A program made the position numbers and the translations under genes. Positions 26,184 through 59,763 of a stretch of DNA of 64,000 nucleotides are shown here, piece by piece. The DNA comes from an uncultured Bacteroidota bacterium (GTDB lineage Bacteria > Bacteroidota > Bacteroidia > 2-12-FULL-35-15), in NCBI GenBank assembly GCA_903847205.1, contig CAINDA010000065.1:67929-131928 (forward strand), written 5' to 3'. The notes under the pieces were generated by a model. That model had not been told where the DNA came from. It searched no databases and saw nothing but the letters and a program-made list of their open reading frames with translations. Every line of letters starts with the position of its first letter. The stretch's first letter is position 1.

Positions 26184-26333
26184 AAAAAAAATTGTACAAG
26201 ATATATGGTTTTGCATAGAACCTTGTTCAGCTTAAATAAGCAAGTTTATAACACATTAGTAATTAGATGATAATTATCTTTTCAGAAATTCAAGTACTAT
26301 TTAATAATTTTCATTATTAATCTATTTAATTAT

Positions 26334-28218: not shown

Positions 28219-28229
28219 ATTAAACAAAA

Positions 28230-29306: not shown

Positions 29307-29310
29307 ATTC

Positions 29311-30348: not shown

Positions 30349-30395
30349 ATTCTTTAATTTCGGGTTCATAACAACCTCTAAAATCAAGCATCTAA

Positions 30396-44330: not shown

Positions 44331-44819
44331 TTTACTTTATTTTATGTCCCTCTGATGAAGAACTATTTATATTCTGTTTTCTTGATTTAAGGACTGCAAA
44401 GATATAACTTTTTTCTTTCCTGCAACTTTTTTCTTAGAATCAGGCTGATTTAGTTTTGATTTGGAGAGAAAAAGAGCCTGTTTGCCAATAAAAATAACCC
44501 GTTCCCAAAGGGAAAGAAGCATTGAGAGCTTTGAACCAAGGGGGAAGAAAGAGGCTTATTGGCAAAAAGAAGTGGTTAGCAAGAGTCCACTGTCCTGCGG
44601 GTAAATATTCTTAATTTAAGATCCAACCTCCTTATGGGCACAGGGACTGATTGATAATTATTTTTTTGATTGAAACAGAAAAGATGATAGGTCGATTTCC
44701 TCCAAAATATTCTAAAATTCAGTAGATTTGTGCTTAATAACATTCATAAAATTCAGCCTGTTTCATACGGCAATTTTAACAAAGGATAAAATTAAACCGA
44801 ATAATAGTTAGAAATTTTA

Positions 44820-46004
44820 ATGATTTTAGAAATCCCAAAGCCGGCATTAACAATGTATAAACAAACAGTTGATTTTATTAAATCACAATTCCCATCTCAG
44901 GATTCGATTCAGCTGCATGAGCCTGTTTTTAATGGTAATGAAAAAAATTATCTGATAGACTGTGTTGATTCAACCTTTGTTTCATCAGTTGGAAAATATG
45001 TGGATAATTTTGAAAAACAGTTGGCTGCTTATACAGGTGCAAAGTATGCTGTTGCCTGCGTAAACGGCACTGCAGCCCTTCACATGGCAATGATTACCGC
45101 AGGAGTTCAAAGGAATGATATTGTAATTACTCAGCCTTTAAGTTTTATTGCAACATGCAATGCCATTGCCTACATTGGTGCATCGCATTTATTTGTGGAT
45201 GTTGATAAGGATACAATGGGTTTAAGCCCGGAAAAACTAAAAACTTATTTGACTGAAAATGCTGTAAAAAAATCAGACGGTTTTGCCTATCATAAGTCAA
45301 CCGGACAAAAAATCGCAGCCTGCATACCCATGCATACATTCGGTCATCCCTGCCGTATTGATGAACTTGCCGTTATCTGCAATGAATATAATATTGCACT
45401 GATTGAAGATGCAGCTGAATCTATAGGCAGTTATTATAAAAATAAACATACAGGCACTTTCGGACTTTTAGGAACATTTAGTTTTAACGGCAATAAAACC
45501 ATTACCTGCGGCGGGGGAGGAGCTATTGTTACCAATAATGAAGCATTGGCAAAAAGAGCTAAATATTTAACCACCCAGGCTAAAGTGCCTCATCGCTGGG
45601 AATTTGTGCATGATGAAATTGGATATAATTACCGGATGCCTAATATTAACGCGGCATTGGCCTGTGCCCAGCTGGAGCAGCTGAATCCTTTTCTTGAAAA
45701 TAAACGCAGTCTGGCGAAGCTCTATTCCGAATTTTTTAAAGGAACCGGGATGCAATTTATGGAAGAGCCGTCTGATTCAAAATCAAACTATTGGCTTTGT
45801 TCAATATTGCTGCCTGATAAAAAAACACGTGACGAGTTTTTACAATACAGCAATGATAACGGGGTAATGACCCGTCCTGTGTGGAGATTAATGAATAAAC
45901 TTGTGATGTTTAAAGATGCCATCTGCGGTAATTTAGATAATGCACAGATGCTGGAAGACAGGCTGGTGAATATACCGAGCAGTGTGAGGATGCAAATAAA
46001 ATGA
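44820..46004 (+). CDS. DegT/DnrJ/EryC1/StrS family PLP-dependent sugar aminotransferase (LegC/PseC-like)
   Basis: LHEPVFNGNEKNYLIDCVDSTFVSS...AVACVNGTAALHMAMI...FSFNGNKTITCGGGGAIVTN carries the conserved Lys (FNGNK). The start may instead be Met12 at 44853. Confidence 0.8.
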   Translation: MILEIPKPALTMYKQTVDFIKSQFPSQDSIQLHEPVFNGNEKNYLIDCVDSTFVSSVGKYVDNFEKQLAAYTGAKYAVACVNGTAALHMAMITAGVQRNDIVITQPLSFIATCNAIAYIGASHLFVDVDKDTMGLSPEKLKTYLTENAVKKSDGFAYHKSTGQKIAACIPMHTFGHPCRIDELAVICNEYNIALIEDAAESIGSYYKNKHTGTFGLLGTFSFNGNKTITCGGGGAIVTNNEALAKRAKYLTTQAKVPHRWEFVHDEIGYNYRMPNINAALACAQLEQLNPFLENKRSLAKLYSEFFKGTGMQFMEEPSDSKSNYWLCSILLPDKKTRDEFLQYSNDNGVMTRPVWRLMNKLVMFKDAICGNLDNAQMLEDRLVNIPSSVRMQIK

Positions 46005-46636
46005 GAGTGCTTGTAATCAGCGATATTCATGGAAATTTACCTGCTTTAGAATACGTTCTTAAGGAGGAGCAATCTGCTGATTTGGTTATTTCATTGGGTG
46101 ATGTTGTAAATTACGGACCTTGGAGTAATGAATGTGTTGATTTAATGGATTCATTAAAAAGTAAAGTTTTGATTTTAGGAAATCACGAAGAGGCATTTCT
46201 TGATGGGCTGTATCAGGGAAGTAATTTAACAGCAAAAGCCTTTTTTGAAATATGTTACCCAAGCTTTAATCGAAAAGACCAAGTCAGTAAGTACATAAAA
46301 ATGTATTCTTTCAAAGATGCAGTTTTTACTCATACATTAAACAATAGCTATATTTTCAATGACTCAGAAATTCAAATTGAGAAAGATACTTTTATCGGCC
46401 ATTCGCACCGGATATTTTTAAAAGATGTAAACGGTTATAGATTGGTAAACGTTGGCAGTGTAGGACAAAACCGTATAAATATCGATGAGCTCAATTATGT
46501 AATCTGGGATACTGAAAATAATTCTGTCGAATTAATGAGAAAAGAATTTAATGTCGATCAGCTTATTCAAGAAATGAAAATTAAAAACTATCCCGAAATA
46601 TGCCTCAATTATATTTTATCTAAACGCATTAAATAA
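46001..46636 (+). CDS. Metallophosphoesterase (calcineurin-like, YfcE-type)
   Basis: MRVLVISDIHGNLPALEYV (DxHG), SLGDVVNYGP (GD motif), GNHE and GHSH form the motif series. Length is 211 aa. Confidence 0.65.
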   Translation: MRVLVISDIHGNLPALEYVLKEEQSADLVISLGDVVNYGPWSNECVDLMDSLKSKVLILGNHEEAFLDGLYQGSNLTAKAFFEICYPSFNRKDQVSKYIKMYSFKDAVFTHTLNNSYIFNDSEIQIEKDTFIGHSHRIFLKDVNGYRLVNVGSVGQNRINIDELNYVIWDTENNSVELMRKEFNVDQLIQEMKIKNYPEICLNYILSKRIK

Positions 46637-46638
46637 TA

Positions 46639-47631
46639 ATGGGAAACAAAATAAATATAGCCATTACGGGAACAGGCAGTTTAATTGGTCAGGCGGTTAT
46701 TAAGTCAATACAGCGTTCTAATCTAAAAGATAAAATTAGTATAGTCGGCTTTGATTATTTTAAAGAAACAGTTGGTTCGTTTTGGTCAGATAAAAATTAT
46801 TTTCTGCCTGATATTTTAAGACCTGGTATCAGCGAGGAAAAATGGATAAACGTAATTATAAATGCAATTCTTGAAAACAACATTAAACTATTATTTGCCG
46901 GAGTTGATTTTGAACTCCCTCTTTTTGCTAAATATAAAACTGTTATAGAGGAAAAAACAGGTGTTATAATAATGGTAAGTTCTGCAGCCGTTATTGAAAT
47001 TGCAGACGATAAATATTTAACTTACGAATTCTTAAAGAAACATGACCTTTCGCATCCAAAATCTTTTTTACCTGGCGAAGCAGATTTTAATACATTAAAA
47101 TATCCTCTGATTATAAAACCCAGAAAAGGAGCAAGAAGCAAGGGTGTTTATAAAGTAAAAGATAAAGATCATCTCTTAAGCGTTATTGACTCAATTAAAG
47201 ATCCGATTATTCAGGAATGTATAGGTATTGACGAAGAAGAATATACCTGCGGAACAATATATTTGAATGGCGAACTAAAAAAAATAATTGTTTTAAAAAG
47301 GAGTTTAAAAGAAGGAAATACGTTTATCTCTCATTACAAAAATGATTTTCCGGAGATTATTACGACCTATTTAAAAGAAGTTTCGAATTACTTAAAACCT
47401 TTTGGGGCTTGTAATTTTCAGTTAAGACTTGATTCAGAAGGCCTGCCTAAAATATTTGAGATTAATTCTCGTCACTCGGGTACAACCTACATTCGTTCAT
47501 TGTTCGGTTTTAAGGAAGTTGAATATATTATCAATTATCTTTTATTTAATATTGAAATGGAATTTGAAATGAGAGAAGGAACTGTGGTGAGATATTTCGA
47601 CGAATTTTTTGTTCAATCTAATAAAAAATGA
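46639..47631 (+). CDS. ATP-grasp domain enzyme (ligase) within the nonulosonic-acid cluster
   Basis: PLIIKPRKGARSKGVYKVKDKD is the B-loop and FEINSRHSGT the Mg/ATP site. Length is 330 aa. Confidence 0.6.
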   Translation: MGNKINIAITGTGSLIGQAVIKSIQRSNLKDKISIVGFDYFKETVGSFWSDKNYFLPDILRPGISEEKWINVIINAILENNIKLLFAGVDFELPLFAKYKTVIEEKTGVIIMVSSAAVIEIADDKYLTYEFLKKHDLSHPKSFLPGEADFNTLKYPLIIKPRKGARSKGVYKVKDKDHLLSVIDSIKDPIIQECIGIDEEEYTCGTIYLNGELKKIIVLKRSLKEGNTFISHYKNDFPEIITTYLKEVSNYLKPFGACNFQLRLDSEGLPKIFEINSRHSGTTYIRSLFGFKEVEYIINYLLFNIEMEFEMREGTVVRYFDEFFVQSNKK

Positions 47632-48485
47632 AAATTTTAATTACCGGCGTTAACGGTTTTGCAGGGAAGGTGCTGTATAAATATTTGTCCCAGCAGCATG
47701 AAGCTGCAGGGATATATAACAGCGGTAAGGCAATGTTTGGTAATTGTTTTAAAGTTGATTTAACAAAAGAAGCCGAAACAATTCAGGTTATTGGAAAGGC
47801 AGGCGGAGGTTCTATTGATGCTATTGTGCATTTGGCTTCACAGACAGCAAATACAGGCAATGTTAATGATCTTTCGGTGCTATTCAATAATGCAGCTATT
47901 TCAAAGAATATTGCTTTAGCAGCCAGAGAATATGCCGTTAAGCAATTTGTTAATTTATCAAGCTCCTCTGTCTATCCCAATATTGACGGTGTATTCCATG
48001 AAAATTCCAGTATAAACCCAGCGTTGAATTCTGACGGCATTTATGGGTTATCAAAATATAACAGCGAAGTGATTTTAGATTATTTTTTGTCTAAAACAGA
48101 AATTGAAATAACACATTTAAGAACCGCAATGATAATCGGCGAAGAAATGGAAAGTACACGTTTAATTCCCGTTATTGAAAATGAAATAGTAGAACATAAT
48201 ACAGTTACATTATTTGGAAAAGGTGAGCGCTTATTGAACTTAATCAGGGTGGAAAAGCTGGCTGAATATGTATCTTTTTTTTTAAGCCATCCATCTCATA
48301 ATATTGTTAATATAGCAGAAGAGTGCTTATCAGTATTTGATTTAGCTAAAAGGATAATTGTTCAAAAAGGGAATGCTGAAACTAAAATTATCTTGAAAGA
48401 AGAAGGAAACAGAAGTAAATTTATTTTGGATATACAAAAGTTGAAAAAAATAATGGCAAATAGCGTGAATCATGGAGAAAAATAA
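47628..48485 (+). CDS. NAD-dependent epimerase/dehydratase family protein
   Basis: MKILITGVNGFAGKVLYKYL Rossmann N-terminus and YGLSKYNSE YxxxK. Length is 285 aa with a 4-nt overlap with the ATP-grasp gene. Confidence 0.6.
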   Translation: MKILITGVNGFAGKVLYKYLSQQHEAAGIYNSGKAMFGNCFKVDLTKEAETIQVIGKAGGGSIDAIVHLASQTANTGNVNDLSVLFNNAAISKNIALAAREYAVKQFVNLSSSSVYPNIDGVFHENSSINPALNSDGIYGLSKYNSEVILDYFLSKTEIEITHLRTAMIIGEEMESTRLIPVIENEIVEHNTVTLFGKGERLLNLIRVEKLAEYVSFFLSHPSHNIVNIAEECLSVFDLAKRIIVQKGNAETKIILKEEGNRSKFILDIQKLKKIMANSVNHGEK

Positions 48486-48641
48486 TAATCTGTAAGTTAG
48501 GCAAAAAAGGTTAAATAAGGGACAGTTTTTGAATAGGCACATGATTTATAGTTTAGTTATTTGTTGATATAATTTATCCTTATACCTTTGATTCGATGAA
48601 TATTTTAATTCACCTGCTTCAATGTCGAAACAATTACCGTT

Positions 48642-50132
48642 ATGAAAAATTTCAAAAAAAAGTTTCAACTTTTATTCATTATATTTTTTATCAATACCTT
48701 TTTGACTTTTACAAAATGTGATGCCCAAAATAATGTCGGTATTGGTACGACTACACCTGCACCATCTGCTTTATTAGATATAGATGCAAGTCCAGCAAAT
48801 GATAAAGGAATACTTATTCCAAGGATGAATACAGGGCAGATGAATGCTATTGTCTCCCCAGCAAATGGGTTATTAATTTATAATACGGATTGTAATGTGT
48901 TCGATTATTGGAACGGCTCAGCTTGGATCCCTTTTCCTTTCTCTGGCATAGGCCCTCCACAGCCTAGCACGATTACTGGCATGAGCCCTGTTTGTTTAGC
49001 TCAAAACGGAGTTGTTTATTCTGTTATCAATGTGAGCGGTGTAACGTACTCATGGACCTATTCTGGTACAGGCTTCACCTGCTCTTCAGGATGCACAAGC
49101 AATACCATAACAGCCGCCTTTTCTGCTTCAGCAACTTCCGGTATTCTCACCGTTACACCAAGCAGTGCCTGTGCTGTTGGCACACCCCAAACCTTTAATA
49201 TTACTGTGAATGGCCTTCCTACTGCTGCCAACGCAGGAGCTGATATAAATCCGGCATGCAGTGTAAGCAATACTACGTTAGCCGGAAATCCACCAATAAT
49301 TGGTACAGGTTCATGGTCGGTAGTATCTGGTACGGCCTCCATCACTACCCCAGGTTCTCCTTCATCTGGGGTCACAGGATTGGCAGTGCCTGGCATAGCT
49401 ACCTTGCGGTGGACAATTTCCAATGCTCCCTGCACCTCGTCAACTGATGATGTTGTTATTACAACTACCTCATGCGGATCCACTTGCGGCTTACAAACAT
49501 TTGCATCAGCTAATTTAAATGTTGGTGTCATGGTAACCAGCGATGGTTCACATACTGCACAGCAGCAAACCAATAACGGTGTTGTCGAAAAATACTGTTA
49601 TAACAACGTGACTGCCAATTGTGCCATTTACGGCGGTTTTTATGAATGGCCAGAAGCAATGAGCTACTCTGCTTCTATTAACTGCGATCCTTGCGGAAGC
49701 AGCGGTGTTCAGGGGATATGTCCTTCAGGTTTGCATATACCGACCGATTTAGAATTTAGCCGCTATGAATATTGCTTAGAAAATACTATTGCGCCGACTG
49801 GAAACACAACTTTGTCAGATTTTCAGACTTTAACAAGCTGGCGCGGCACTAATTCAACAGCAGGACCGGGGGCGAAAATGAAAGTAACAAACAGTAACTC
49901 TCCCGCATGGGATGGCACCAATGCCAGCGGTTTCTCGGCACTTCCCGGAGGATTTCGAACGAGCTCAAATGGTGCGTTCTCAACTATGGGCTTATACTCG
50001 CTCTTCTGGAGTGCATCGGAGAATAGTGGTATTGATGCTTGGGCTCGTCGTCAAACTACAGGCAGCGGGCAGTCCGATCGGGGGCTGGGAACAAAAACAG
50101 GTGGTTTTCAGGTTCGTTGTCTGTACGATTGA
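48642..50132 (+). CDS. Secreted protein with C-terminal Fibrobacter succinogenes major paralogous (FISUMP) domain
   Basis: It has a signal peptide and a central Ig/PKD-like Thr/Ser-rich region. The C-terminus FSALPGGFRTSSNGAFSTMGLYSLFWSASENSGIDAWARRQ...GGFQVRCLYD has the YWSS...A..R....SVRC-type signature of the Fib_succ_major domain. The 171-aa antisense ORF 49058..49573 is spurious. Confidence 0.6.
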   Translation: MKNFKKKFQLLFIIFFINTFLTFTKCDAQNNVGIGTTTPAPSALLDIDASPANDKGILIPRMNTGQMNAIVSPANGLLIYNTDCNVFDYWNGSAWIPFPFSGIGPPQPSTITGMSPVCLAQNGVVYSVINVSGVTYSWTYSGTGFTCSSGCTSNTITAAFSASATSGILTVTPSSACAVGTPQTFNITVNGLPTAANAGADINPACSVSNTTLAGNPPIIGTGSWSVVSGTASITTPGSPSSGVTGLAVPGIATLRWTISNAPCTSSTDDVVITTTSCGSTCGLQTFASANLNVGVMVTSDGSHTAQQQTNNGVVEKYCYNNVTANCAIYGGFYEWPEAMSYSASINCDPCGSSGVQGICPSGLHIPTDLEFSRYEYCLENTIAPTGNTTLSDFQTLTSWRGTNSTAGPGAKMKVTNSNSPAWDGTNASGFSALPGGFRTSSNGAFSTMGLYSLFWSASENSGIDAWARRQTTGSGQSDRGLGTKTGGFQVRCLYD

Positions 50133-50214
50133 TTAGTTAACAATTTGCCTCAAAATTGAGGTTTGTAATTCTTGAAATTATCTATCCTAGATTTGAATTG
50201 ATATTTAATCAAAA

Positions 50215-50757
50215 ATGTTTAAGCACCTAAAATTCATTCTGTTTTATCCTAAAATAGGACCAGATATGTACTTAACACATTGGCTTTTGTTTTTTAAACC
50301 TTTTCGTATGTGGTTTCAAAAATATAAAATTGGGAGCATTGGGTCCAACTCTGAAATAAGGCCTTATTGCACAATTATAGGAACCCAAAATGTAGTTATC
50401 GGAAATAATGTTATTATTCCCAATGGGACGACGTTATGTAATTTACCTGGAGATAAAAAATCATTTATTTATATTGAGGATGATGTGCTGCTTGGACCTA
50501 ATGTGGCTATTTACAGCAGTACACATAATTTTCAGAATATAGAAATTCCTATAAAAAATCAAGGTTACAAAACTGCCGAAACACGTTTAAAAAAAGGATG
50601 CTGGGTGGGAATTAATTCTGTGATATTACCGGGTGTTACAATTGGAAAAAATAGCGTTGTAGGTGCTAATTCTGTAGTAAATATAGATGTGCCGGATTTT
50701 GCCGTTGTCGCCGGTGCTCCAGCCAAAATAATAAAATATATCAATGATCCTAAATAG
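50215..50757 (+). CDS. Hexapeptide-repeat (left-handed beta-helix) sugar acetyltransferase (LegH/PseH/WbpD-like role plausible)
   Basis: Consecutive [LIV]GxxxxI hexads: IGNNVIIPNGTTL, VLLGPNVAIYSS, CWVGINSVILPGVTIGKNSVVGANSVV. The true start may be an internal Met. Confidence 0.7.
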   Translation: MFKHLKFILFYPKIGPDMYLTHWLLFFKPFRMWFQKYKIGSIGSNSEIRPYCTIIGTQNVVIGNNVIIPNGTTLCNLPGDKKSFIYIEDDVLLGPNVAIYSSTHNFQNIEIPIKNQGYKTAETRLKKGCWVGINSVILPGVTIGKNSVVGANSVVNIDVPDFAVVAGAPAKIIKYINDPK

Positions 50758-51778
50758 AAACAAAGTATTTATAATAGCCGAAGCAGGCGTTAATCATAAC
50801 GGAAGCATGGATATGGCTGTAAAGTTGATTGACGCAGCAATTAATGCAAAGGTTGATGCAGTAAAATTTCAGACCTTTATTGCCGAAAATGTAATTTCAA
50901 AATACGCTGAAAAAGCCGACTATCAGAAGGAATCCACTGGTGAAAACGAAAGTCAGCTGGATATGGTTAAGAAACTTCAATTGAGTTTCAAAAATTTTAC
51001 TGAATTAAAAATGTATTGCGATTCAAAAGGAATAATGTTTCTTTCTACTCCGTTTGATATGGCCAGTGTTGATTTCTTAGCCACATTAAAAATGGGATTG
51101 TGGAAAATTCCCTCCGGCGAAATTACTAATATGCCCTATCTGCAAAAAATTGGGAGTTTTAATGAGGAAGTTATTTTCTCTACGGGTATGTCAACTTTAG
51201 GCGATATAGAAAATGCATTAAAAATATTAATTGATGCTGGTACATCAAAAGAAAAAATTACAGTACTGCATTGCAATACAGAATATCCTACCCCGATGAT
51301 TGATGTAAATTTAAAGGCGATGTTAACCATTAAAGGAGCATTTGATATTAACATAGGTTATTCTGATCATACCTTAGGAATTGAAGTGGCCATCGCAGCA
51401 GCGGCTTTAGGAGCAAATGTTATTGAAAAACATTTTACATTGGACAAGTCACTTCCTGGACCGGATCACAAAGCATCATTAGAACCTCAGGAATTAAAAG
51501 CGATGACGGCAGCAATAAGAAATACTGAACTGGCTTTAGGAAGCAGAGTAAAATTGCCGACATCTTCAGAAAAAAAGAATATTAACATAGCCCGCAAAAG
51601 TATTCATTTAGCAAAAAATATCACAAAAGGGGCAGTTATTACAACTGATGATTTAATTATTAAACGTCCTGGAAATGGGATAAGTCCGATGTTTTTAAAT
51701 GAAATTATAGGCTGCGTTGTAAAGCATGATCTCACCGAGGACAGCATTTTAAATTTCAAAGATATAGAATGGAAATAG
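50744..51778 (+). CDS. Nonulosonic acid synthase (NeuB/LegI/PseI family, with C-terminal SAF domain)
   Basis: VFIIAEAGVNHNGSMDMAVKLIDAA is the NeuB N-terminal signature. It also has KFQTF, YSDHTLG and a SAF-domain C-terminus. Length is 344 aa. Confidence 0.8.
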   Translation: MILNRNKVFIIAEAGVNHNGSMDMAVKLIDAAINAKVDAVKFQTFIAENVISKYAEKADYQKESTGENESQLDMVKKLQLSFKNFTELKMYCDSKGIMFLSTPFDMASVDFLATLKMGLWKIPSGEITNMPYLQKIGSFNEEVIFSTGMSTLGDIENALKILIDAGTSKEKITVLHCNTEYPTPMIDVNLKAMLTIKGAFDINIGYSDHTLGIEVAIAAAALGANVIEKHFTLDKSLPGPDHKASLEPQELKAMTAAIRNTELALGSRVKLPTSSEKKNINIARKSIHLAKNITKGAVITTDDLIIKRPGNGISPMFLNEIIGCVVKHDLTEDSILNFKDIEWK

Positions 51779-52878
51779 CAATTTTAACCAGTTCGCGCGC
51801 CGATTTTGGTTTTTACAAGCCCTTGCTAAATCGTTTAAATAAACAAAAATCGATTAAAGCAAAACTGGTTGTTTTTGGAACTCATCTTTCTAAAAAACAT
51901 GGTTATACCATTGATGATATAAGAAACTCCGGTTATAAAATATTTTCAGAAATAGATGTTATCCCTGCGGGTGACAAGCCTCAAGATATTTCTAAATTAA
52001 TAGGTAAAGCGCATTTGAAATTTGGCGAATTTTGGAAACAAAATAAATTTGATTTGATTTTATGTCTTGGCGATAGATATGAAATGTTTGGGGCTGTGTC
52101 TGCATCTGTGCCTTTTAATATACATGTTGTTCATATCAGCGGCGGTGAAGAAACTTTAGGAGCGATTGATAATATCTACAGGCATTCACTTTCTTTAATC
52201 GCAAAATATCATTTTACCAATACTAAAAAAAATGCAGAGAGAGTGAAGCAGATTAAAAATTCGTCAAAAAATATTTATCATACTGGTTCAATGGCAGTTG
52301 ATAATATCAATGCTACTGAATTATATAATGCCAAAAATTTCCAAAAAAAATTTAATTTTAATATTGCTGAACCCTTTATACTCTTTACGTTTCATCCTGA
52401 AACTGTAAACTATGCAAACAATGAATCTTATTCTTCAATTATTAAAGAAACACTGCTCAGTTTAAATACAAATGTGCTTGTAACAATGCCTAACGCAGAT
52501 ACAATGGGTGATGTGATCAGAAAACAATTACACGAAGCAGCCACAGAAAATAAAAGGATTCACCTTTTTGAATCATTGGGTTCTAAGGGCTATTACACTG
52601 CTTTAAAAAATTGTGATTTTGTATTAGGAAATTCATCAAGCGGCATTGTTGAAGCGGCATCATTTGGTAAATATGTAATTGACTTGGGCAGTCGTCAGCA
52701 GGGAAGGGAAACCGGGAAAAATGTAATTCAATGCAAAATAAATAAAGATAAAATTCTCATAGCAGTTAAACAATTAAGAGTTTTACCTAAATTTAGTACT
52801 AAAAATATTTATGGTGATGGAGATGCGAGCGGTAAAATTTTCGCTCTGTTAAAAAAAATTGAAGCTGGACTAATCTAA
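51769..52878 (+). CDS. UDP/GDP-N-acetylhexosamine 2-epimerase, hydrolysing (NeuC/LegG family)
   Basis: MEIAILTSSRADFGFYKPLL, GDRYEMFGAV and HISGGE are NeuC blocks. Length is 369 aa. Confidence 0.8.
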   Translation: MEIAILTSSRADFGFYKPLLNRLNKQKSIKAKLVVFGTHLSKKHGYTIDDIRNSGYKIFSEIDVIPAGDKPQDISKLIGKAHLKFGEFWKQNKFDLILCLGDRYEMFGAVSASVPFNIHVVHISGGEETLGAIDNIYRHSLSLIAKYHFTNTKKNAERVKQIKNSSKNIYHTGSMAVDNINATELYNAKNFQKKFNFNIAEPFILFTFHPETVNYANNESYSSIIKETLLSLNTNVLVTMPNADTMGDVIRKQLHEAATENKRIHLFESLGSKGYYTALKNCDFVLGNSSSGIVEAASFGKYVIDLGSRQQGRETGKNVIQCKINKDKILIAVKQLRVLPKFSTKNIYGDGDASGKIFALLKKIEAGLI

Positions 52879-52887
52879 ATTTTATTC

Positions 52888-53940
52888 ATGACAGATTTTA
52901 ATAAATACATATTTCCTGAAACGGGTACAGCCCGCGAAGCACTGCAGTTAATTAATAAAATAGGCATTCCCAATATGGCTGTTTTTATTGTTAATGAAAA
53001 TCAGCAGTTAGTTGGATCATTGACTGACGGCGATATCCGGCGCGGTTTATTGAACGGGATTACTATTGATGCTCTGGTAGGTAAATTTATGAATCCTTCA
53101 AGCAAAAGTTTTGAAGACGGCGGAAACAATTTTGAAAAAGTAAATAAATATAAGGCTGCCGGAATACGTTTTATTCCTGTGATTGATGAAAATAAAAAAA
53201 TTGTAAGGGTTGTCGATCTCGAGAAGCTGCGTTCTATAATTCCTGCAGATGCGGTATTGATGGCCGGAGGGAAGGGAGAAAGGCTGAAACCATATACTGA
53301 TACTACTCCTAAACCAATGCTGAAAATTGGCGATAAGCCTATTATTGTGAGGAACCTTGAACGGCTTGCGAATTATGGTATAAGCAATTTTCATATTTCA
53401 GTGCGTCACATGGCCGATCAGATTGAAAATGGCATTAAAGAATATAAAATTGATAATAGTTTATTAAATTTTGTAAAAGAAGAAAAACCCCTTGGGACAA
53501 TTGGTTCCGTTAAGTTAATCAAAACATTTATATATGATACAATCCTGCTGATGAACGCGGATTTGCTTACTAATATTGATTTTCAAGATTTTTACAAAAA
53601 ATTTCTCGAATCGGGAGCCGACATGCAGGTGGCTACTATTCCCTATAACATTGATGTTCCTTACGCCATAATGGATATAAGCGATAAAAATGAAGTACTG
53701 TCTTTTAGCGAAAAGCCCCGTTATACATATTATTCGAATGCAGGAATTTATGTATTCAAAAAAGAATTAGTGAGTTTGATTCCTGATAATGATGTGTTTG
53801 ATGCTACTCATTTTATGGAAGCAGTAATCGCCTCCAAGAAAAAATTAACATCCTATCCAATTTTAGGATATTGGCTGGATATAGGCCGTATAGAGGATTT
53901 TTACAAAGCACAGGAGGATGTTAAACATATTTATTTCTGA
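52888..53940 (+). CDS. CBS-pair + sugar-phosphate nucleotidyltransferase (PtmE-like)
   Basis: The N-terminal ~110 aa contain two CBS motifs. Then comes an NTP-transferase core AVLMAGGKGERLKPYTDTTPKPMLKIGDKPII. This matches the architecture of C. jejuni PtmE in the legionaminic acid pathway. Confidence 0.6.
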   Translation: MTDFNKYIFPETGTAREALQLINKIGIPNMAVFIVNENQQLVGSLTDGDIRRGLLNGITIDALVGKFMNPSSKSFEDGGNNFEKVNKYKAAGIRFIPVIDENKKIVRVVDLEKLRSIIPADAVLMAGGKGERLKPYTDTTPKPMLKIGDKPIIVRNLERLANYGISNFHISVRHMADQIENGIKEYKIDNSLLNFVKEEKPLGTIGSVKLIKTFIYDTILLMNADLLTNIDFQDFYKKFLESGADMQVATIPYNIDVPYAIMDISDKNEVLSFSEKPRYTYYSNAGIYVFKKELVSLIPDNDVFDATHFMEAVIASKKKLTSYPILGYWLDIGRIEDFYKAQEDVKHIYF

Positions 53941-54623
53941 TGAAAATTTTATATATCATACCTGCACGCGGGGGGAGTAAGGGACTTCCTGGCAAAAACA
54001 TTCGTGTATTAAATGGTAAACCGTTGATTGCTCATAGCATTGCAGCAGCTCAAAATTCGCATCATCATGGAACTATCCTCGTTAGCACGGATGATGAAAA
54101 AATAGCGGCTATTTCAAAAGAATACGGTGCTGAAGTTCCCTTTCTGCGCCCTGCTCAATTGGCCTCTGATACAGCTTCTTCAATTGATGTGCTTTTTCAT
54201 GCACTGGTTTTTTACAGTGCTCAAAACATAACATTTGATAGTATTGTTTTGTTACAGCCGACATCACCGCTGCGGACTTCCAAAGATATTGATGCGGCAA
54301 TTGAATTAATGATTAAAAAAAATGCAGAAGCAATTGTATCAGTATGCGAAGCCGAACATCACCCGCTTTGGGCAAATACATTACCTGAAGATGGCTGTAT
54401 GAAAGATTTTATCCGTGAAGAAATAAAAGGATTAAACCGGCAGCAGCTGCCAAAATATTATCGGTTGAACGGAGCAGTTTATATTTCCACCATTTCTGCA
54501 TTAAATAAGTACAAAGATTTTTTACATGAAAAAACGTTTGCTTATGTTATGCCTGCAGAACGTTCAGTAGATATTGACCACGAAATAGATTTCAAATTAG
54601 CAGAGCTTCTGCTGAAGGAATAA
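53940..54623 (+). CDS. CMP-nonulosonic acid synthetase (acylneuraminate cytidylyltransferase family, NeuA/LegF-like)
   Basis: MKILYIIPARGGSKGLPGKNIRVLNGKPLIAHSI is the CMP-sugar synthetase P-loop-like signature. Length is 227 aa. Confidence 0.8.
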   Translation: MKILYIIPARGGSKGLPGKNIRVLNGKPLIAHSIAAAQNSHHHGTILVSTDDEKIAAISKEYGAEVPFLRPAQLASDTASSIDVLFHALVFYSAQNITFDSIVLLQPTSPLRTSKDIDAAIELMIKKNAEAIVSVCEAEHHPLWANTLPEDGCMKDFIREEIKGLNRQQLPKYYRLNGAVYISTISALNKYKDFLHEKTFAYVMPAERSVDIDHEIDFKLAELLLKE

Positions 54624-54641: not shown

Positions 54642-55517
54642 TTATTTTAATTTAATCCGCTCAAACGCATCAATAAAGGAAATCTCACTGGCATTATATA
54701 TTTTGCAATTAAGTTTTGCTGCATAATGGTTTAAAATAAAGTAAGCAGAGAATGTCCTGCTCCAGATATCAAAAAATTCATGTGCTTTTTGTGTTCCTTT
54801 ATCAGGATAAGCTTTTAGAAAGGGGACAAATTTTATTTCCTTTTCATTTTCAAAAAAGTGAGCCACTTTTGTGTAAAGAATATTTTCGTCGCTCATGTGC
54901 AGATTCTCATGCCAGGTATGATCAGCACCGACTAAATAAATTTCTTTATACTTCATATTTATCCCTAAAAACAGTGCAGCTATAGTAACATTTAAACTTT
55001 GAGGCATTGCCAGGTCACTTTTGTAAAACCGTTCTGCAAGGCTCGGGAACCCTTTAAATACTGTATAGTTGAAAGGAGTCAAAATTATGCTGCTGTTTTT
55101 TTTTTGTAATTCAATAAAAATAGGCTGATTCATTGCGCGTTTCGGCACCATTAAATTCAAAGGCCAATTTGTTTTTTCTTGAAGGCTTTTGAAAGTTGCT
55201 GCAATAGCCTCATTCGTCCCTTTCCAAAAGAAAGGATCAAGTATAACATAATATTTTGGTTTTAGTGTTTCAAACTCCGGTGTTAAAGCAAAAGTATTTA
55301 CGCAGATAAGCGGATACTGTTTAAATAATTCAGGATGTTTTTCAAGGGAAGCTTTAAGTGAGGGACCATTCGCCAATACAATGCATCTTTCGCTTTTTGC
55401 CTTTGGAAGATGAAGCCCGAATTTGGACTGTACAAGGATTTTTAAAACAGACAGAAAAGTATTTACGCTTTGCGATATAAAATTCACTAAATTTTTATAG
55501 GCTGCTTCCGCTGTCAT
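54642..55517 (-). CDS. DUF115 / MptE-like (motility-accessory-factor-like) protein, candidate nonulosonic-acid glycosyltransferase
   Basis: CIVLANGPSLK is the glycine-rich GNGPSL-type motif of the DUF115/Maf family. YLVGADHTW appears later. Length is 291 aa. It is convergent with the CMP-sugar synthetase gene. Confidence 0.4.
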   Translation of the reverse strand: MTAEAAYKNLVNFISQSVNTFLSVLKILVQSKFGLHLPKAKSERCIVLANGPSLKASLEKHPELFKQYPLICVNTFALTPEFETLKPKYYVILDPFFWKGTNEAIAATFKSLQEKTNWPLNLMVPKRAMNQPIFIELQKKNSSIILTPFNYTVFKGFPSLAERFYKSDLAMPQSLNVTIAALFLGINMKYKEIYLVGADHTWHENLHMSDENILYTKVAHFFENEKEIKFVPFLKAYPDKGTQKAHEFFDIWSRTFSAYFILNHYAAKLNCKIYNASEISFIDAFERIKLK

Positions 55518-55689
55518 TTGGTTTAAATATTTTTACAAATGTAATTATAATCATTAAAAACTGATTTCCAATTTACCCAATAATAAATCAGCCCTTCTCC
55601 AGCCATGCCGCAATAGTAATTTCAAATACTGAAGATTGTTATTTTTTGCTAATTTTGACATCTGCTTATTCAAATTAAAAAGATTATTA

Positions 55690-56385
55690 ATGAAAAGTAA
55701 ATTACCAAGACCGATCGTCGATTTAGCTAAAAAAGTGGTTATCCCCATTTTAAGAAACCGCTGGAAAAAAAATCCTATTGTAGCTGAATGGGTTAAGAAA
55801 GGCTATATTGATGATAAGGAAATAGATTTTATTGTGTTGAATTGGCATAAATGGAATGCACCGACTCCGCCTCCTCATAAAATAAAACAACTTACTGTTG
55901 CTGAATTCGGCAAAAAATATAAATGCAGAATATTGGTTGAAACCGGCACTTTCCGAGGAGATATGATGGAAGCTCAGAAAAATAATTTTGATAAATTATA
56001 TTCCGTTGAACTAAGCATTGAATACTGGGAAAAAGCAAAACAGCGTTTTAAAAGTGATTCACGGATTAATTTAATTCAGGGCGACAGCGGTGAAGTGCTT
56101 CCGAAACTTGTTCCGACACTGGAACAGCCTGCATTATTTTGGTTAGACGGTCATTACTGCGGGAGCTCAACTGCTTTGAGTGCTGTGGAGTGCCCTATTT
56201 ATGCAGAAATTGATGCGGTTTTTAAAAATAATAAGGGACACGTAATGCTTATTGATGATGCCCGTTTATTTATAGGAGAGCATGATTACCCGACAATTCC
56301 TGAGTTAACTCAATATGTTAAAAAAATAAATCCGGATTATTCCGTTACTGTTGTTGACGACATGATTAGAGTTGTGAAATCTTAG
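55690..56385 (+). CDS. Class I SAM-dependent methyltransferase, TylF/MycF/CmcI-like (sugar O-methyltransferase candidate)
   Basis: ILVETGTFRGDMMEA is the SAM motif and LFWLDGHY a metal/active-site-like block. The ORF track starts at 55636, but Met19 (55690, MKSKLPRP) is a more plausible start. Confidence 0.5.
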   Translation: MKSKLPRPIVDLAKKVVIPILRNRWKKNPIVAEWVKKGYIDDKEIDFIVLNWHKWNAPTPPPHKIKQLTVAEFGKKYKCRILVETGTFRGDMMEAQKNNFDKLYSVELSIEYWEKAKQRFKSDSRINLIQGDSGEVLPKLVPTLEQPALFWLDGHYCGSSTALSAVECPIYAEIDAVFKNNKGHVMLIDDARLFIGEHDYPTIPELTQYVKKINPDYSVTVVDDMIRVVKS

Positions 56386-56404
56386 CAAATTTAATGAAGA
56401 CAAA

Positions 56405-57136
56405 ATGATCAACGTAGAACGTATCACAAAAAAAATATTTCAAAATTTCGGACTGCTTATTCGTAAGTACAATGCCGCTACCAGTGAAGAACTCAGACGC
56501 ATTAAACTTTTGGAGCATTACAACATTGATTTGGTTTTTGATATCGGTGCAAACAAAGGCCAATATGCTACCGGTATCATTGATGCCGGTTATGCCCATA
56601 AAATAGTTTCATTTGAGCCTTTATCTTCTGTTTACAAAATAATTGAAGCTGAAAGCAAAAAGTATGAAAATTGGACTGTTGCACCGCGCTGCGCTATCGG
56701 CAGTAAAAAGGAAGAAATTGAAATTAATATTTCTGCAAATTCGGTAAGCAGTACTTTGCTGAATATGCTGGATTCACACTATCAAGGCGCCCCCGACTCA
56801 AAAATTATCGGTAAAGAAAAAGTACAGGTATATCCATTAGATGAAATAGGACTGGAATACAGCAAATCCGCAAAAAATATTTTTTTTAAAATTGATGTGC
56901 AAGGGTTTGAGCAGGAGGTGTTGAAAGGGGCGCAGACAATGATTGCTAGCGCAAAAGGAATTGAAATGGAAATTTCATTGCTGCCATTATATGAAAATCA
57001 AAATTGGTTATTGCCGCAGGTCTTGGAATATATGGAACAAACCGGATTTCAACTAAACAGTATTGCGCCGGCATTTACTGATAATAAAACGGGTGTGGTG
57101 CTGCAATGCAACGGCATATTTTTTAGAAAAAAATAA
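56405..57136 (+). CDS. FkbM family methyltransferase
   Basis: LVFDIGANKGQYATGII and FKIDVQGFEQEVLKGA are the two FkbM-domain signatures. Length is 243 aa. Confidence 0.8.
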   Translation: MINVERITKKIFQNFGLLIRKYNAATSEELRRIKLLEHYNIDLVFDIGANKGQYATGIIDAGYAHKIVSFEPLSSVYKIIEAESKKYENWTVAPRCAIGSKKEEIEINISANSVSSTLLNMLDSHYQGAPDSKIIGKEKVQVYPLDEIGLEYSKSAKNIFFKIDVQGFEQEVLKGAQTMIASAKGIEMEISLLPLYENQNWLLPQVLEYMEQTGFQLNSIAPAFTDNKTGVVLQCNGIFFRKK

Positions 57137-57167
57137 AAGTTTACAATTTTAATGAATAAAAAAATGC

Positions 57168-57198
57168 AGCTGATCGGCTGCATTTTTTATTGATTTAA
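57168..57198. terminator. Bidirectional terminator between convergent genes
   Basis: AAAAAAATGCAGC-TGATCG-GCTGCATTTTTT has a 7-bp stem flanked by an A-run and a T-run. It lies between 56405..57136 (+) and 57218..58297 (-). Confidence 0.55.
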
Positions 57199-57217
57199 TA
57201 AAGTTTGAATTTAAAAA

Positions 57218-58297
57218 TCAAATACAATTTTTAACAGAAATTGTTTTACTCATCGTATTATAAATATCTACAAACGTATCCTGCAGGTTCCATTTATATT
57301 TCCATTCAGGATAATCATTTTGAAATTTTGAAACATCACTGATGTACCATATATGATCACCGCTGCGTGCCTGCTCGCTGTAGCTGTGGTTTAATTTTTT
57401 GCCGCTGATATCTTCGCACATTTTTATTGCTTCAATCATCGAACAGTTAGCAAACCGCCCGCCGCCGGCATTGTAGGCAGCACCTTTTTTGGGATTTTGA
57501 TAAAAATTCCAAAACATATCTACCAAGTCGGAGCTGTGGATATTATCACGCACCTGCTTTCCTTTGTAGCCGAATATGGTATAATGATCTCCGGAAAGCG
57601 TGCATTTCATTAAGTAAGATAAAAAACCATGAAGCTGTGCCCCGCTGTGGTTTGGGCCCGTTAAGCATCCGCCGCGGAATACACCTACATTCATATCAAA
57701 ATATTTTCCATACTCCTGAGCCATCACATCGGCAGCTACTTTTGAAGCGCCGAATACAGAATGTTTGGTATGATCAATACTCATTTGCTCATCAATGCCG
57801 TTTTTAAAATACGGATGAGATTCATCAATTTCCCAGCGTGTTTCTTTTTCTATCAACGGCAGAAAATTAGGATTATCGCCATATACTTTATTGGTAGAAG
57901 TAAAAATAAAAACAGCTTCCTTGCAATATTTGCGGGTCAGTTCAAGCATGTGCATGGTGCCTAAAGCGTTCACGCCGAAGTCTGTGATTGGCTCTTTAGC
58001 TGCCCAGTCATGACTGGGTTGTGCGGCAGTATGTACAATCAGTTTAATATCACTTCCGTATTGATTGAATATTTTTTCGAGTTCAATTAGGTTTCGGATA
58101 TCAATTGAATAATGTTCGTAGTTAGAAACAGTTTCTTTTATTCTGGTTACATTCCAATTGGTGGATGCGGCTGTTCCGAAAAAATAACTTCTCATATCAT
58201 TATCGATACCGATTATTTTATCAAATTTTTTCGAAAAAAAGGAAACAGCTTCACTGCCGATTAATCCTCCAGAGCCTGTTATTAATGCTATATTCAT
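57218..58297 (-). CDS. Extended SDR NDP-sugar epimerase, CDP-paratose/tyvelose 2-epimerase-like
   Basis: [21 protein letters not shown] glycine-rich N-terminus. [38 protein letters not shown] gives YxxxK plus the post-motif block typical of the CDP-tyvelose epimerase subfamily. Length is 359 aa. Confidence 0.6.
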
Positions 58298-58395
58298 GAT
58301 AATTACAAATAATGTTTTGGGTTAGTAAAAGTAACTTTTTTTTACTGTTTTCTGAAAATAAATTTTCAAATCAAACAGGTGCTCCTCATTCACGA

Positions 58396-59541
58396 TTATT
58401 GAGCCCATGACGCAATTGTGTCATAGCTCTGCCTTACAAGGTTATTTAAAGTTTTCGATATTTTTACTGCATTTTGTTTTTTGATATTTATTTCATCACG
58501 GTTTAAAGAAGAAAATATTGTTTGGATCTCCTCCTTTAGATTGGGGCTGTCTTCCGCAAACCAGCCTGCATCCTGCAGTAAAAACCAGTTGTCGCTTTCT
58601 TTGTTTCCGCAGAAAATAATGGATGCTCCGCAGCAGATACTGCTTACTGCTTTTGAAGGCACGGCAACATGAGTCCATGAATTTACAAGTGTTACAAGAT
58701 GCACATCAATATGATGCAGTTCGTTCCGGGGCACGCTGTTTAGTATAGTTACCGAAGGATTATTTTTTGCGTATTGTTTCAGCTCTTCCGCTTTAATTCC
58801 GTAAACAGCCAGTACCATATGGTGTTTATCAGGGTTCAGCTGATCGATTACAGTTTTAATAAAATCTCCGGAATGGGGATTTCCGCAATTACCGCAGTAT
58901 CCAAGGTATATCTTATCAATATGGACTTTCCATGCAGGAGTTTTTTCAATTTTATTTTGATCTAAAAAAACACCGCAGGGTAAAATAACATGTTCTATCT
59001 GCCGTCCGTATTTTTTATCTAAAAGTTTTTTTTGATGAGGTCCAAGAGCTATTATTTTATCGGGAGCATTTTTATAAGTCTGTTTAAGAGCGTATCTATA
59101 TAAAAAATTGTTTTCGCTTAATTCGCCAGTAGCAGCAAACCCTTCCGGGAATAAATCCATGCTCCATAAAATCCATTCAATTTTTTTACGGCCTAATATT
59201 TTTGATGCCCACATCGGCAGCAGGGGAGGACTTGTCATTACTATAATCGGTCCGTGATTTAATTTAGCGGCCTTCCGGATTAAATTGTAACCATCCAATA
59301 AACTGCTCAGATAGCGGAGTATTTTATTATTCCCTTCATAAATCGTTTTGATTGGATACGTTTTGCCAACCGGTTCACGTTTGGTCCCGCCTCCTTCATA
59401 ACTGCGGCTGATGTGAACAACTGCCACTTCTAATTTATGATGTTCAATTAAATAATTTGCGAGGTCCCAGGCATTTTCACCTGTAATGTTAATATTGGGA
59501 GGGTAATGACGGTTGACTATAGTTAATTTTTTTGTCTGCAT
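58396..59541 (-). CDS. GT-B fold glycosyltransferase (GT4/GT1 family)
   Basis: The N-terminus TIVNRHYPPNINITGENAWDLANYL resembles GT4 WcaI-like proteins (YxP.....G). Length is 381 aa. Confidence 0.65.
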   Translation of the reverse strand: MQTKKLTIVNRHYPPNINITGENAWDLANYLIEHHKLEVAVVHISRSYEGGGTKREPVGKTYPIKTIYEGNNKILRYLSSLLDGYNLIRKAAKLNHGPIIVMTSPPLLPMWASKILGRKKIEWILWSMDLFPEGFAATGELSENNFLYRYALKQTYKNAPDKIIALGPHQKKLLDKKYGRQIEHVILPCGVFLDQNKIEKTPAWKVHIDKIYLGYCGNCGNPHSGDFIKTVIDQLNPDKHHMVLAVYGIKAEELKQYAKNNPSVTILNSVPRNELHHIDVHLVTLVNSWTHVAVPSKAVSSICCGASIIFCGNKESDNWFLLQDAGWFAEDSPNLKEEIQTIFSSLNRDEINIKKQNAVKISKTLNNLVRQSYDTIASWAQ

Positions 59542-59763
59542 ATATAACTACCGAAGCAATTTATTAAAGGAACCGAAAGATGGATTATAAGTATAATTTT
59601 TAAAACCTGTTTGTTATGATTTGCAGCAACGGTAAGGTTTTTTAATCCTTACAAAGTTAATTAAATTTTTTAATTTCTGTTTCTATGCTACCTTTGGAAA
59701 AATGATTTTTAATTGAAATATTTGAATCATCATTTCGTTATAATCCTCAAATAAAAAAACAAA

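Follow-up and report, generated by a model that had tools for sequence, protein, structure and literature searches.

What is the role of a phosphoesterase, an ATP-grasp ligase, and a short-chain dehydrogenase/reductase (SDR) within a gene cluster for the biosynthesis of a nonulosonic acid? This question is raised by a stretch of 64,000 nucleotides of contig CAINDA010000065.1 from an uncultured Bacteroidota bacterium (here called the window), in which the three genes, referred to below as the trio, follow upon the aminotransferase gene legC and precede the synthase gene neuB. An earlier note on this DNA, made from the letters alone, had taken the trio for a local insertion. We found instead that it recurs in 27 further loci and is a conserved, horizontally mobile, and uncharacterised three-enzyme module. 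Regarding its function, we consider it about an even chance that the trio takes over the step of PglD/LegH, that is, that it N-acylates the amine at C4 of the sugar precursor (N7 of the final sugar) with an acid other than acetate, which is probably phosphorylated.

The first gene of the trio (46001..46636, plus strand, like all genes of the cassette) encodes a calcineurin-like metallophosphoesterase (PF00149, PF12850). It had been described as YfcE-like; the fold holds, but the protein reached only 44.2 bits on the YfcE model TIGR00040 (cutoff 56.25), so that the likeness is a loose one. Its best relatives in the PDB are 3rqz and 3qfm, followed by YfcE, Ap4A hydrolase, and PPP phosphatases, and 15-16 orthologues share the metal motifs D8xH10, G33D34, G60N61H62, H111, and G133H134xH136. 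The second gene (46639..47631) encodes the ATP-grasp protein, which matches NF009402 with 283.1 bits (cutoff 218); this model (PRK12767.1-1) carries in NCBIfam only the name "carbamoyl phosphate synthase-like". A structure model of the protein (AlphaFold2, pLDDT 88) gave 2pn1, which is uncharacterised, L-amino-acid ligases, PurK, PylC, and PurT as the top Foldseek matches, and residues K160, Q192/E193, E274/N276, and R278 are invariant in 22 sequences. We predict the protein to be a ligase of the carboxylate-amine ligase fold that has kept its nucleotide- and Mg-binding residues. The third gene (47628..48485) encodes an extended SDR of 285 amino acids (SDR285; PF01370, 101 bits). In its family of proteins of about 280 amino acids, G7xxG10xxG13 and Y139xxxK143 are invariant and S111 is nearly so (90% or more). 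The best PDB match of the family profile is the UDP-glucuronic acid 4-epimerase 6zl6 (E 8e-35), followed by 3m2p, and the matches are UDP-GlcA/UDP-GlcNAc 4-epimerases. Judged by its sequence, SDR285 is GalE/UDP-GlcA-4-epimerase-like and not a 4,6-dehydratase.

A genome scan queried with the single ATP-grasp protein gave nothing, whereas an alignment-based scan of species-representative genomes yielded 28 loci, 27 of which have an intact ATP-grasp open reading frame (ORF), while that of L030 is disrupted. The loci were compared by homology mapping and ORF clustering. The trio is spread over at least five phyla, with loci in Bacteroidota, Leptospira, Campylobacterota (Sulfurimonas/Arcobacteraceae), Omnitrophota, and Planctomycetota (Planctomycetales). 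Nonulosonic acid core genes accompany it in 18-20 of the 27 further loci (NeuC and the nucleotidyltransferase with a CBS pair in 19, NeuB in 20); a neuB gene is missing from L018, L019, L023, and L032. The recurrent order is a dehydratase gene (395-amino-acid PglF-like or 328-amino-acid LegB), legC, phosphoesterase, ATP-grasp, the SDR of about 280 amino acids, optionally an LbH acetyltransferase, neuB, neuC, the CBS-nucleotidyltransferase, and the cytidine monophosphate (CMP)-sugar synthetase. The SDR gene comes after the ATP-grasp gene in 25 of the 25 loci that are not cut by a contig end, the phosphoesterase gene stands before it in all loci but one, and legC adjoins the trio in 21 of the 27 related loci. 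LbH was found in 12 of the 27, each time between the SDR gene and neuB; in six loci neuB follows the SDR gene directly, and no LbH or PglD-like gene was detected in the cassette, where the other ORFs are unannotated. Because this gene order recurs across 27 independent loci, the arrangement is far beyond chance.

The two closest relatives, whose ATP-grasp proteins are 78-79% identical to that of the window, carry the intact form of the cassette: LegB, LegC, metallophosphoesterase, ATP-grasp, SDR, LbH, NeuB, NeuC, nucleotidyltransferase, and CMP synthetase. On its 3' side lie genes of the Gfo/Idh/MocA family and, in L044, also a short-chain dehydrogenase gene (PtmF/PtmA-like). Across phyla the ATP-grasp orthologues are 45-82% identical, and 56-82% among the best 120 matches. 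Close homologues number in the hundreds, with named ones in Elizabethkingia, Leptospira, Oleiphilus, Sphingobacteriaceae, and Methylumidiphilus, and among the carriers available in culture are Elizabethkingia meningoseptica, Christiangramia portivictoriae, Parapedobacter lycopersici, Niabella defluvii, and Leptospira alexanderi; a phmmer search against cluster representatives (50% identity) returned 153 matches at E<=1e-30 and 3677 at E<=1e-3, and family membership was checked for ten of them. The dehydratase of the related loci is either of the LegB type or PglF-like and then annotated by NCBI as "UDP-GlcNAc 4,6-dehydratase". We observed that the 395-amino-acid PglF-like protein (at about 7000-8200 in L022, L014, and L023; also in the E. 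coli loci L035-L037), with the motif STDKA...MMGASK, is unusually conserved: between the Flavobacteriia gene and genes of 24 E. coli genomes, the DNA identity is 71-74%.

Phosphatases of different folds fill the first position of the trio. An unrelated PHP-domain protein of about 235 amino acids replaces the metallophosphoesterase in 8 loci, and the metal ligands are intact in both families. In a search for fusions among 1.84 billion representative proteins, we found PHP fused to ATP-grasp (P0157, P0173), ATP-grasp fused to a HAD phosphatase (P0269), and ATP-grasp fused to an SDR (P0229). The occurrence of three phosphatase folds (metallophosphoesterase, PHP, HAD) with one and the same partner points to phosphate monoester hydrolysis as an integral part of what the trio does. 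Additionally, the ATP-grasp domain is fused to a phosphoglycosyltransferase (Bac_transf) in P0221 and P0280-P0282 (34% identity to the window protein, E 1e-35). P0157, P0221, P0229, and P0269 were scored on NF009402, and all four pass. Many further fusions join ATP-grasp to FemAB/Acetyltransf_6 (P0149 and P0205 among the fusions listed); they are abundant in Verrucomicrobiota-like metagenomic contigs.

The surrounding genes tell which sugar the trio is likely to act on. Between 44820 and 54623, ten ORFs on the plus strand were assigned to families by Pfam and NCBIfam scans; they form two blocks with overlapping or near-abutting stop and start codons, 44820-48485 and 50215-54623. The nine genes named in the earlier note are all real and lie on this strand where it had placed them. 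The first block opens with legC (44820..46004; TIGR04181, 549 bits, cutoff 420; PF01041, 299 bits), which encodes a pyridoxal-phosphate-dependent sugar 4-aminotransferase of the DegT fold and possibly starts at the second ATG, 12 codons further in. The second block begins with an LbH hexapeptide acetyltransferase (50215..50757), by its family matches of the WbbJ/WcaF/maltose-O-acetyltransferase type and an optional accessory. It is followed by a LegI-like nonulosonic acid synthase of the NeuB family (50744..51778; TIGR03569, 491 bits, cutoff 400), a LegG-like hydrolysing NDP-HexNAc 2-epimerase of the NeuC family (51769..52878; TIGR03568, 377 bits, cutoff 236), a CBS-pair protein with a sugar-1-phosphate nucleotidyltransferase domain that resembles PtmE, Lea6, and Elg6 (52888..53940; PF00571, PF00483), and a LegF/NeuA-like CMP-nonulosonic acid synthetase (53940..54623; CTP_transf_3, PF02348, 87.6 bits, cutoff 22.6); the models TIGR03568, TIGR03569, and PF02348 cannot tell Leg from Neu enzymes. 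NeuB scored 279 bits on the PseI model (cutoff 340), and the CMP synthetase 168 bits on the PseF model (cutoff 205.7), both below the threshold.

The window LegC is 53% identical to Lea2 and NeuB 58% identical to Lea4 of E. coli O161, and between the CBS-nucleotidyltransferase and the nucleotidyltransferase of that cluster the full-length identity is 33%. The order of the O161 genes is dehydratase, LegC, FemAB-family protein, NeuB, NeuC, a hypothetical protein, nucleotidyltransferase, CMP synthetase, and O161 flippase. Based on the identity of LegC and NeuB and on the gene order shared with this Leg5Ac7Ala cluster, the operon is to be classed as a legionaminic-type CMP-nonulosonic acid operon. 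The earlier note had leaned to the legionaminic branch as well, on account of the PtmE-like enzyme; the GDP dependence that it had associated with this branch is a possibility only, the dehydratases of the relatives being of either kind, LegB-type or PglF-like. The D-glycero-D-galacto configuration of the product would follow from orthology to O161, and 8-epi or other isomers are also possible. With the CMP-legionaminic acid pathways of C. jejuni (LegB/C/H/G/I/F and PtmE), E. coli (Elg/Lea), and A. baumannii (Lga), the window shares the LegC-family enzyme, NeuB, the 2-epimerase, the CBS-nucleotidyltransferase, and the CMP synthetase, and with the E. coli Leg clusters also the gene order at 33-58% identity. 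It differs from them in the lack of a PglD/LegH-type acetyltransferase and of a 4,6-dehydratase, and in the three extra enzymes and LbH between legC and neuB. The "core set" of the earlier note is accordingly there as far as LegC, NeuB, NeuC, CBS-nucleotidyltransferase, and CMP synthetase are concerned; the 4,6-dehydratase and the LegH-type enzyme are absent from the window.

The absence of a LegH-type enzyme has its counterpart in the related loci. A PglD/LegH-type acetyltransferase, which is present in the canonical E. coli Leg clusters, is lacking in 26 of the 28 trio loci. In other organisms the slot between legC and neuB is held by N-acyl modifiers, such as the FemAB-type alanyltransferase of O161, ptmG/ptmH in C. 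jejuni, and a deacetylase together with a formyltransferase in Kuenenia (bioRxiv 10.64898/2026.04.20.719630). O161 contains Leg5Ac7Ala, and Lea3 has been assigned as the alanyltransferase (PMC7685785). Lea3 and the trio thus occupy the same slot in orthologous operons, and Lea3 sets the N7 acyl group; it belongs, however, to the unrelated FemAB family, is presumably aminoacyl-tRNA dependent, and has no phosphatase or SDR partner.

In contexts unrelated to this one, members of the ATP-grasp family likewise keep company with a DegT enzyme and a PglF/WbpM-like dehydratase. In the Verrucomicrobia-like loci L040 and L042, the dehydratase is PglF-like and PHP is present as well, and a flagellar glycosylation island of Acetoanaerobium holds DegT, ATP-grasp, SDR, Metallophos, and a PglD-like acetyltransferase. 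On pSymB of S. meliloti (L033/L034; 7581-13934 in L034), PHP, ATP-grasp, and SDR genes form the end of an operon cysD(nodP2)-nodQ2-cysQ-PHP-ATP-grasp-SDR within a polysaccharide cluster that includes a WbpM-like dehydratase, DegT, a PIG-L deacetylase, a formyltransferase, and three sulfotransferases. A homologous ATP-grasp (36-39% identical) is present on 75 Sinorhizobium megaplasmid records, of which the operon was inspected in two; we found no functional literature on the S. meliloti operon. The common denominator of these contexts is the 2-acetamido-4-amino-2,4,6-trideoxyhexose pathway. A further arrangement was observed in the O-antigen locus of Leptospira alexanderi (L005, 9366-13213 and 14706-20925), where a block of metallophosphoesterase, ATP-grasp, SDR, and CBS-nucleotidyltransferase stands alone between two sets of nonulosonic acid genes, the second of which comprises a NeuB-AP_endonuc_2 fusion (753 amino acids), DegT, a cytidylyltransferase, Fe-ADH, and a radical SAM/SPASM protein.

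A precedent for the exchange of an acetyltransferase for an ATP-grasp enzyme is known from Neisseria. According to two papers, PglB is an acetyltransferase/phosphoglycosyltransferase that leads to diNAcBac, while in the allelic PglB2 an ATP-grasp domain replaces the acetyltransferase domain and the product is 4-glyceramido-2-acetamido-2,4,6-trideoxyhexose (GATDH) (PMC11130364, PMC6959607). Compared by this described architecture, PglB2 and the trio would have in common an ATP-grasp where normally an acetyltransferase acylates the C4 amine of 2-acetamido-4-amino-2,4,6-trideoxyhexose, and the order phosphoglycosyltransferase-ATP-grasp is that of the NF009402-family homologues P0221 and relatives. 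The window enzyme differs in being free-standing, in its phosphoesterase and SDR partners, and in feeding a nonulosonic acid rather than a lipid-linked hexose. Among the best 120 matches of a search with the fusion P0221 there was no named Neisseria protein, and in the literature we found no function for ORF8, which accompanies pglB2 in Neisseria. Ligation followed by dephosphorylation presumably also occurs in the HS:2 capsule pathway of C. jejuni, where we take the ATP-grasp amidoligase Cj1438 to form an amide with a phosphorylated partner that the phosphatase Cj1435 then dephosphorylates; in that system, the sugar gives the carboxylate (glucuronate) and the amine bears the phosphate. No sequence relation between Cj1438 and the window ATP-grasp surfaced in the PDB searches. 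In the flagellin locus of C. difficile type B, the ATP-grasp protein CDR20291_0245 ("carbamoyl-phosphate-synthetase-like") is genetically required for a peptidylamido amino sugar (PMC5207246). By its description, it resembles our case in lying next to FemAB-like and aminotransferase genes and differs in that the sugar is not a nonulosonic acid.

How might the three enzymes work together? We propose a scheme of seven steps, in which we infer the substrates, the order of the third to the fifth step, and the acid. In the first step, a 4,6-dehydratase, which the window does not encode and the gene of which stands directly 5' of legC in the relatives, would form an NDP-4-keto-6-deoxy-HexNAc, which LegC would then aminate at C4. 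In the third step, the NF009402 ATP-grasp would use ATP to convert a non-acetate carboxylic acid into its acyl-phosphate and couple it to the C4 amine. The metallophosphoesterase, or PHP or HAD in other lineages, would subsequently strip the phosphate monoester carried by the acid, and the acylated sugar nucleotide would then undergo an NAD-dependent redox reaction or an epimerisation by the GalE-like SDR, for which C2' of the hydroxyacyl group would be the simplest site. NeuC, NeuB, and the CMP synthetase would lead on to CMP-Leg5Ac7(acyl), and LbH, where present, would as the seventh step acetylate the side chain or a sugar hydroxyl. The C4 nitrogen of the hexose becomes N7 of the nonulosonic acid; from the two positions, N5 and N7, that the earlier note had left open, N7 emerges as much the likelier. 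Its suggestion of an N-acyl decoration by the ATP-grasp enzyme fits in so far as a non-acetyl acyl group suits the slot, the lack of LegH in most trio loci, and the phosphoglycosyltransferase fusions, but the aminoacyl group that it gave as an example is one possible acyl among several.

Because the cassette holds no gene able to make a special acid, the acid would be a universal phosphorylated central metabolite. The leading candidate is 3-phosphoglycerate, which by analogy with PglB2 would give an N-glyceroyl group; an alternative scheme that uses all three enzymes would go from phosphoenolpyruvate through a pyruvoyl to a lactoyl group. In its most general form, our proposal states that a phosphatase (metallophosphoesterase, PHP, or HAD), an NF009402 ATP-grasp, and an SDR install N-glyceroyl or a related hydroxyacyl on 2,4-diamino-2,4,6-trideoxyhexoses, and hence on N7 of legionaminic and pseudaminic acids, from a glycolytic phospho-acid by "ligate, dephosphorylate, redox-tailor", and that the module has spread horizontally through at least six phyla. 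This extended version is tentative, and we rate it as possible but well short of an even chance. We found no literature linking ATP-grasp to legionaminic, pseudaminic, or nonulosonic acids apart from incidental matches in reference lists, and none joining carbamoyl phosphate synthase with nonulosonic acids.

Several observations weigh against N-acylation by the trio in place of LegH. L011 and L039 carry a PglD-like acetyltransferase beside the trio, so that ATP-grasp need not replace LegH everywhere. A scheme of ligation followed by dephosphorylation has no need of the SDR, the role of which is unexplained, and the SDRs that accompany the ATP-grasp in S. meliloti, Acetoanaerobium, and P0229 come from other subfamilies. 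In S. meliloti, the trio shares its operon with nodP2Q2-cysQ and lies about 20 kb from the DegT gene. For every member, the function of the cassette is read from the genes, and the link to Neisseria PglB2 is drawn from domain architecture as described in papers. Finally, the pathway may not run in the organism at hand, as there is no 4,6-dehydratase in the 64 kb and an inserted gene with a terminator-like hairpin parts the two halves of the operon.

The dehydratase gene stands directly 5' of legC in the two closest relatives and in most other loci. In the whole window, we detected no LegB-type or PglF-like 4,6-dehydratase (best score on TIGR04180 50.7, cutoff 475), and tblastn with LegB and the 395-amino-acid dehydratase matched nothing but distant SDRs and revealed no remnant 5' of legC. 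SDR285 was considered as a divergent LegB and rejected: it scores 21.9 bits on the LegB model (cutoff 475), has SSSSVY in place of TDE/TDK, and is epimerase-like. A second SDR of the window (SDR359, see below) was likewise rejected as the missing dehydratase, being CDP-tyvelose-2-epimerase-like. A PglD/LegH-type N-acetyltransferase did not appear in the window either (tblastn, 0 matches). LbH, which had been taken for the N-acetyltransferase of the pathway, is not of the NeuD/PglD/LegH type and was rejected as LegH: it reaches 51.6 bits on TIGR03570 (cutoff 160.8), its best matches are WbbJ, WcaF, and maltose O-acetyltransferases, and its alignment with the acetyltransferase of the E. coli Leg clusters is limited to the hexapeptide repeats.

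The inserted gene, which lies outside the pathway, encodes a FISUMP/PKD_6 lipoprotein-like protein (48642..50132, plus strand; PF09603, PF19408) with a signal peptide followed by Cys. It separates the SDR and LbH genes; neither the 27 related loci nor the two closest relatives have it at this place. Its guanine-cytosine (GC) content of 0.449 exceeds the 0.30-0.39 of the pathway genes, of which those flanking it have 0.30-0.35. We read it as a foreign insertion that splits the operon. Convincing transposon-like repeats were not found around it. It is flanked by a promoter-like site (48545-48573) and by a terminator-like hairpin with a T-run (50147-50162); the sigma-70 promoter and terminator scan was at background level, with a consensus not informative for Bacteroidota, and these sites are descriptive only. 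Since the closest relatives carry the intact form, the cassette of the window is, on comparison of the sequences, a copy truncated at its 5' end and interrupted midway.

The main competitor to a phosphorylated hydroxy acid keeps the architecture and the amine and changes the acid. O-phospho-serine, -threonine, or -homoserine, alanine, or another amino acid would be placed on N7, the phosphoesterase would free the side-chain hydroxyl, and LbH or the PglD-like enzyme would N-acetylate the alpha-amine, as in Leg5Ac7AcAla. We regard this as a minority possibility that deserves to be taken seriously. N7-alanyl and N-acetylalanyl legionaminic acids exist, and the relatives of the two enzymes suit such substrates: L-amino-acid ligases, PylC, and Ddl/VanA are among those of the ATP-grasp structure, phospho-Ser/Thr phosphatases of the PPP/PrpE type come closest to the metallophosphoesterase, and for the PHP proteins the histidinol-phosphatase/YcdX group does. 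The frequent acetyltransferase beside the trio (LbH in 12 of the 27 loci, PglD-like in L011 and L039) also finds a task here, and because of the latter two loci an aminoacyl group capped by N-acetylation fits equally well. Furthermore, the family has numerous fusions to FemAB-like aminoacyl transferases, and in C. difficile a peptidylamido sugar depends on an ATP-grasp (PMC5207246). The alanyl group of O161, however, is attributed to the FemAB-type enzyme and not to an ATP-grasp, LbH resembles O-acetyltransferases, the sole family-type precedent with a known product, PglB2, gives glyceroyl, and the SDR is still left without an explanation.

Two other readings take the trio away from the C4 amine. 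It could make a different glycan component, for example a uronic acid amide. In this case the SDR would be a UDP-GlcA 4-epimerase, the amidoligase activity of the ATP-grasp would attach a phosphorylated amino-alcohol, and the phosphatase would strip the phosphate, in the manner of Cj1438/Cj1435 of C. jejuni. The match of the SDR profile to 6zl6 speaks for this and to that extent against N-acylation, as do ORF cluster c9, which lies just upstream of the cassette in about eight loci and has one annotated member (Leptospira) with UDP-glucose/GDP-mannose dehydrogenase Pfam domains, and the S. meliloti trio, which is not adjacent to an aminotransferase gene. We nevertheless hold it to be quite improbable: the trio is part of the legC...neuB operon, where stop and start codons overlap, and keeps a constant order across phyla, it stays beside legC in the rearranged loci L018 and L031, no sugar 6-dehydrogenase was detected near the cluster in the window, and the phosphoglycosyltransferase fusions point to diamino-trideoxyhexose substrates. 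Alternatively, the trio might supply or re-route a sugar-nucleotide precursor, the ATP-grasp being a kinase, the phosphoesterase a sugar-bisphosphate or NDP-sugar phosphatase, and the SDR an epimerase; as in GDP-heptose synthesis, their joint product would go to the CBS-nucleotidyltransferase. The four genes are indeed contiguous in Leptospira, L023, and L032; yet the CBS-nucleotidyltransferase is normal in Leg clusters without the trio, S. meliloti and the Verrucomicrobia-like loci have the trio but not this enzyme, the structure search ranked ligases and carboxylases first and not kinases, and the phosphoglycosyltransferase and FemAB-like fusions place the ATP-grasp at N-acylation, which makes this reading hardly credible. 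It is also conceivable, whatever the module does elsewhere, that the cluster of the window is a decaying or non-functional copy and that no modified nonulosonic acid is made here. This we judge unlikely, although the 64 kb yielded neither a dehydratase nor a remnant of one, rpmH and carB adjoin legC, the FISUMP insertion brings a foreign GC content and the hairpin, and the closest relatives are intact. On the other side, the nine pathway ORFs are of full length with their catalytic motifs kept and no frameshifts, the dehydratase could sit elsewhere in the genome, as the window covers 64 kb of a 338-kb contig, and promoter and terminator consensus scans say little in Bacteroidota.

The glycan locus does not end with the CMP synthetase gene. 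The earlier note had confined the cluster to 44820-54623 without further genes, overlooking the FISUMP gene, whereas the cluster runs on past 54623 to about 61233. Directly downstream, on the minus strand, lies the gene of an MptE-like/DUF115 protein (54642..55517; PF01973, 42.8 bits), which, going by the known Maf-type proteins, we take to be a candidate nonulosonic acid transferase; a homologue is also found 3' of the cassette in L025. Within 55636..61233, there follow a 249-amino-acid ORF without a family match, an FkbM methyltransferase (56405-57136, plus), the CDP-tyvelose-2-epimerase-like SDR359 (57218-58297, minus; 1orr, E 8e-34), a soluble protein of 381 amino acids (58396-59541, minus), and a Wzx-like flippase with 12 transmembrane segments (59764-61233, plus). 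SDR359 has FGASK at the expected catalytic YxxxK site, so the catalytic Tyr may be swapped for Phe. On the other side, rpmH and carB lie upstream of legC. About 480 bp of non-coding DNA, including a purine-rich stretch at 44420-44640, separate legC from rpmH, a small gene on the minus strand (about 44180-44340) whose product reads as L34. The carB-like gene (41185-44004, minus) encodes a carbamoyl phosphate synthase large chain of just 939 amino acids with both ATP-grasp halves and the oligomerisation domain, no C-terminal allosteric domain being reported; it is a true carbamoyl phosphate synthase and unrelated to the NF009402 ATP-grasp of similar name. An Rfam scan of the whole window gave 0 matches. 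A second deoxysugar cluster was observed at 20297-31877 (plus), with an NTP-transferase, a radical SAM enzyme, a Gfo/Idh/MocA oxidoreductase, two SDRs, a dTDP-4-dehydrorhamnose 3,5-epimerase, two Methyltransf_14-type C-methyltransferases, another methyltransferase, a Wzx-like protein, and a weak GT2 match below the Pfam cutoff. Its content suggests a C-methylated, branched deoxysugar as the product.

The antigenicity and charge of bacterial surfaces, their susceptibility to phages, and their immune mimicry are shaped by the N-acyl groups that legionaminic and pseudaminic acids carry. For non-acetyl N-acyl groups, the enzymes responsible are mostly unknown, and according to a 2025 review the stage at which such groups are added is still not known. 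The gene for the N7-glyceroyl group (Gra) of Pse5Am7Gra in Tannerella forsythia was called "elusive" in 2018, and the Gra genes are unresolved for both T. forsythia and Vibrio vulnificus (PMC5378307, PMC6120980); for ORFs Tanf_01195 to Tanf_01230 of the T. forsythia locus, neither the text nor the supplement of the paper gives an annotation. The trio offers a compact, widespread, and self-contained three-enzyme module as a candidate for N7 acylation. If a phosphorylated central metabolite is used, this would be a new route of sugar N-acylation that does without acyl-CoA, acyl carrier protein, or tRNA. Overall, if our proposal is true, it would answer which genes make the Gra substituent in T. 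forsythia and V. vulnificus, and the trio would provide a genomic marker by which modified nonulosonic acids could be predicted in many uncultured lineages as well as in Leptospira, Elizabethkingia, Flavobacteriia, and Campylobacterota.

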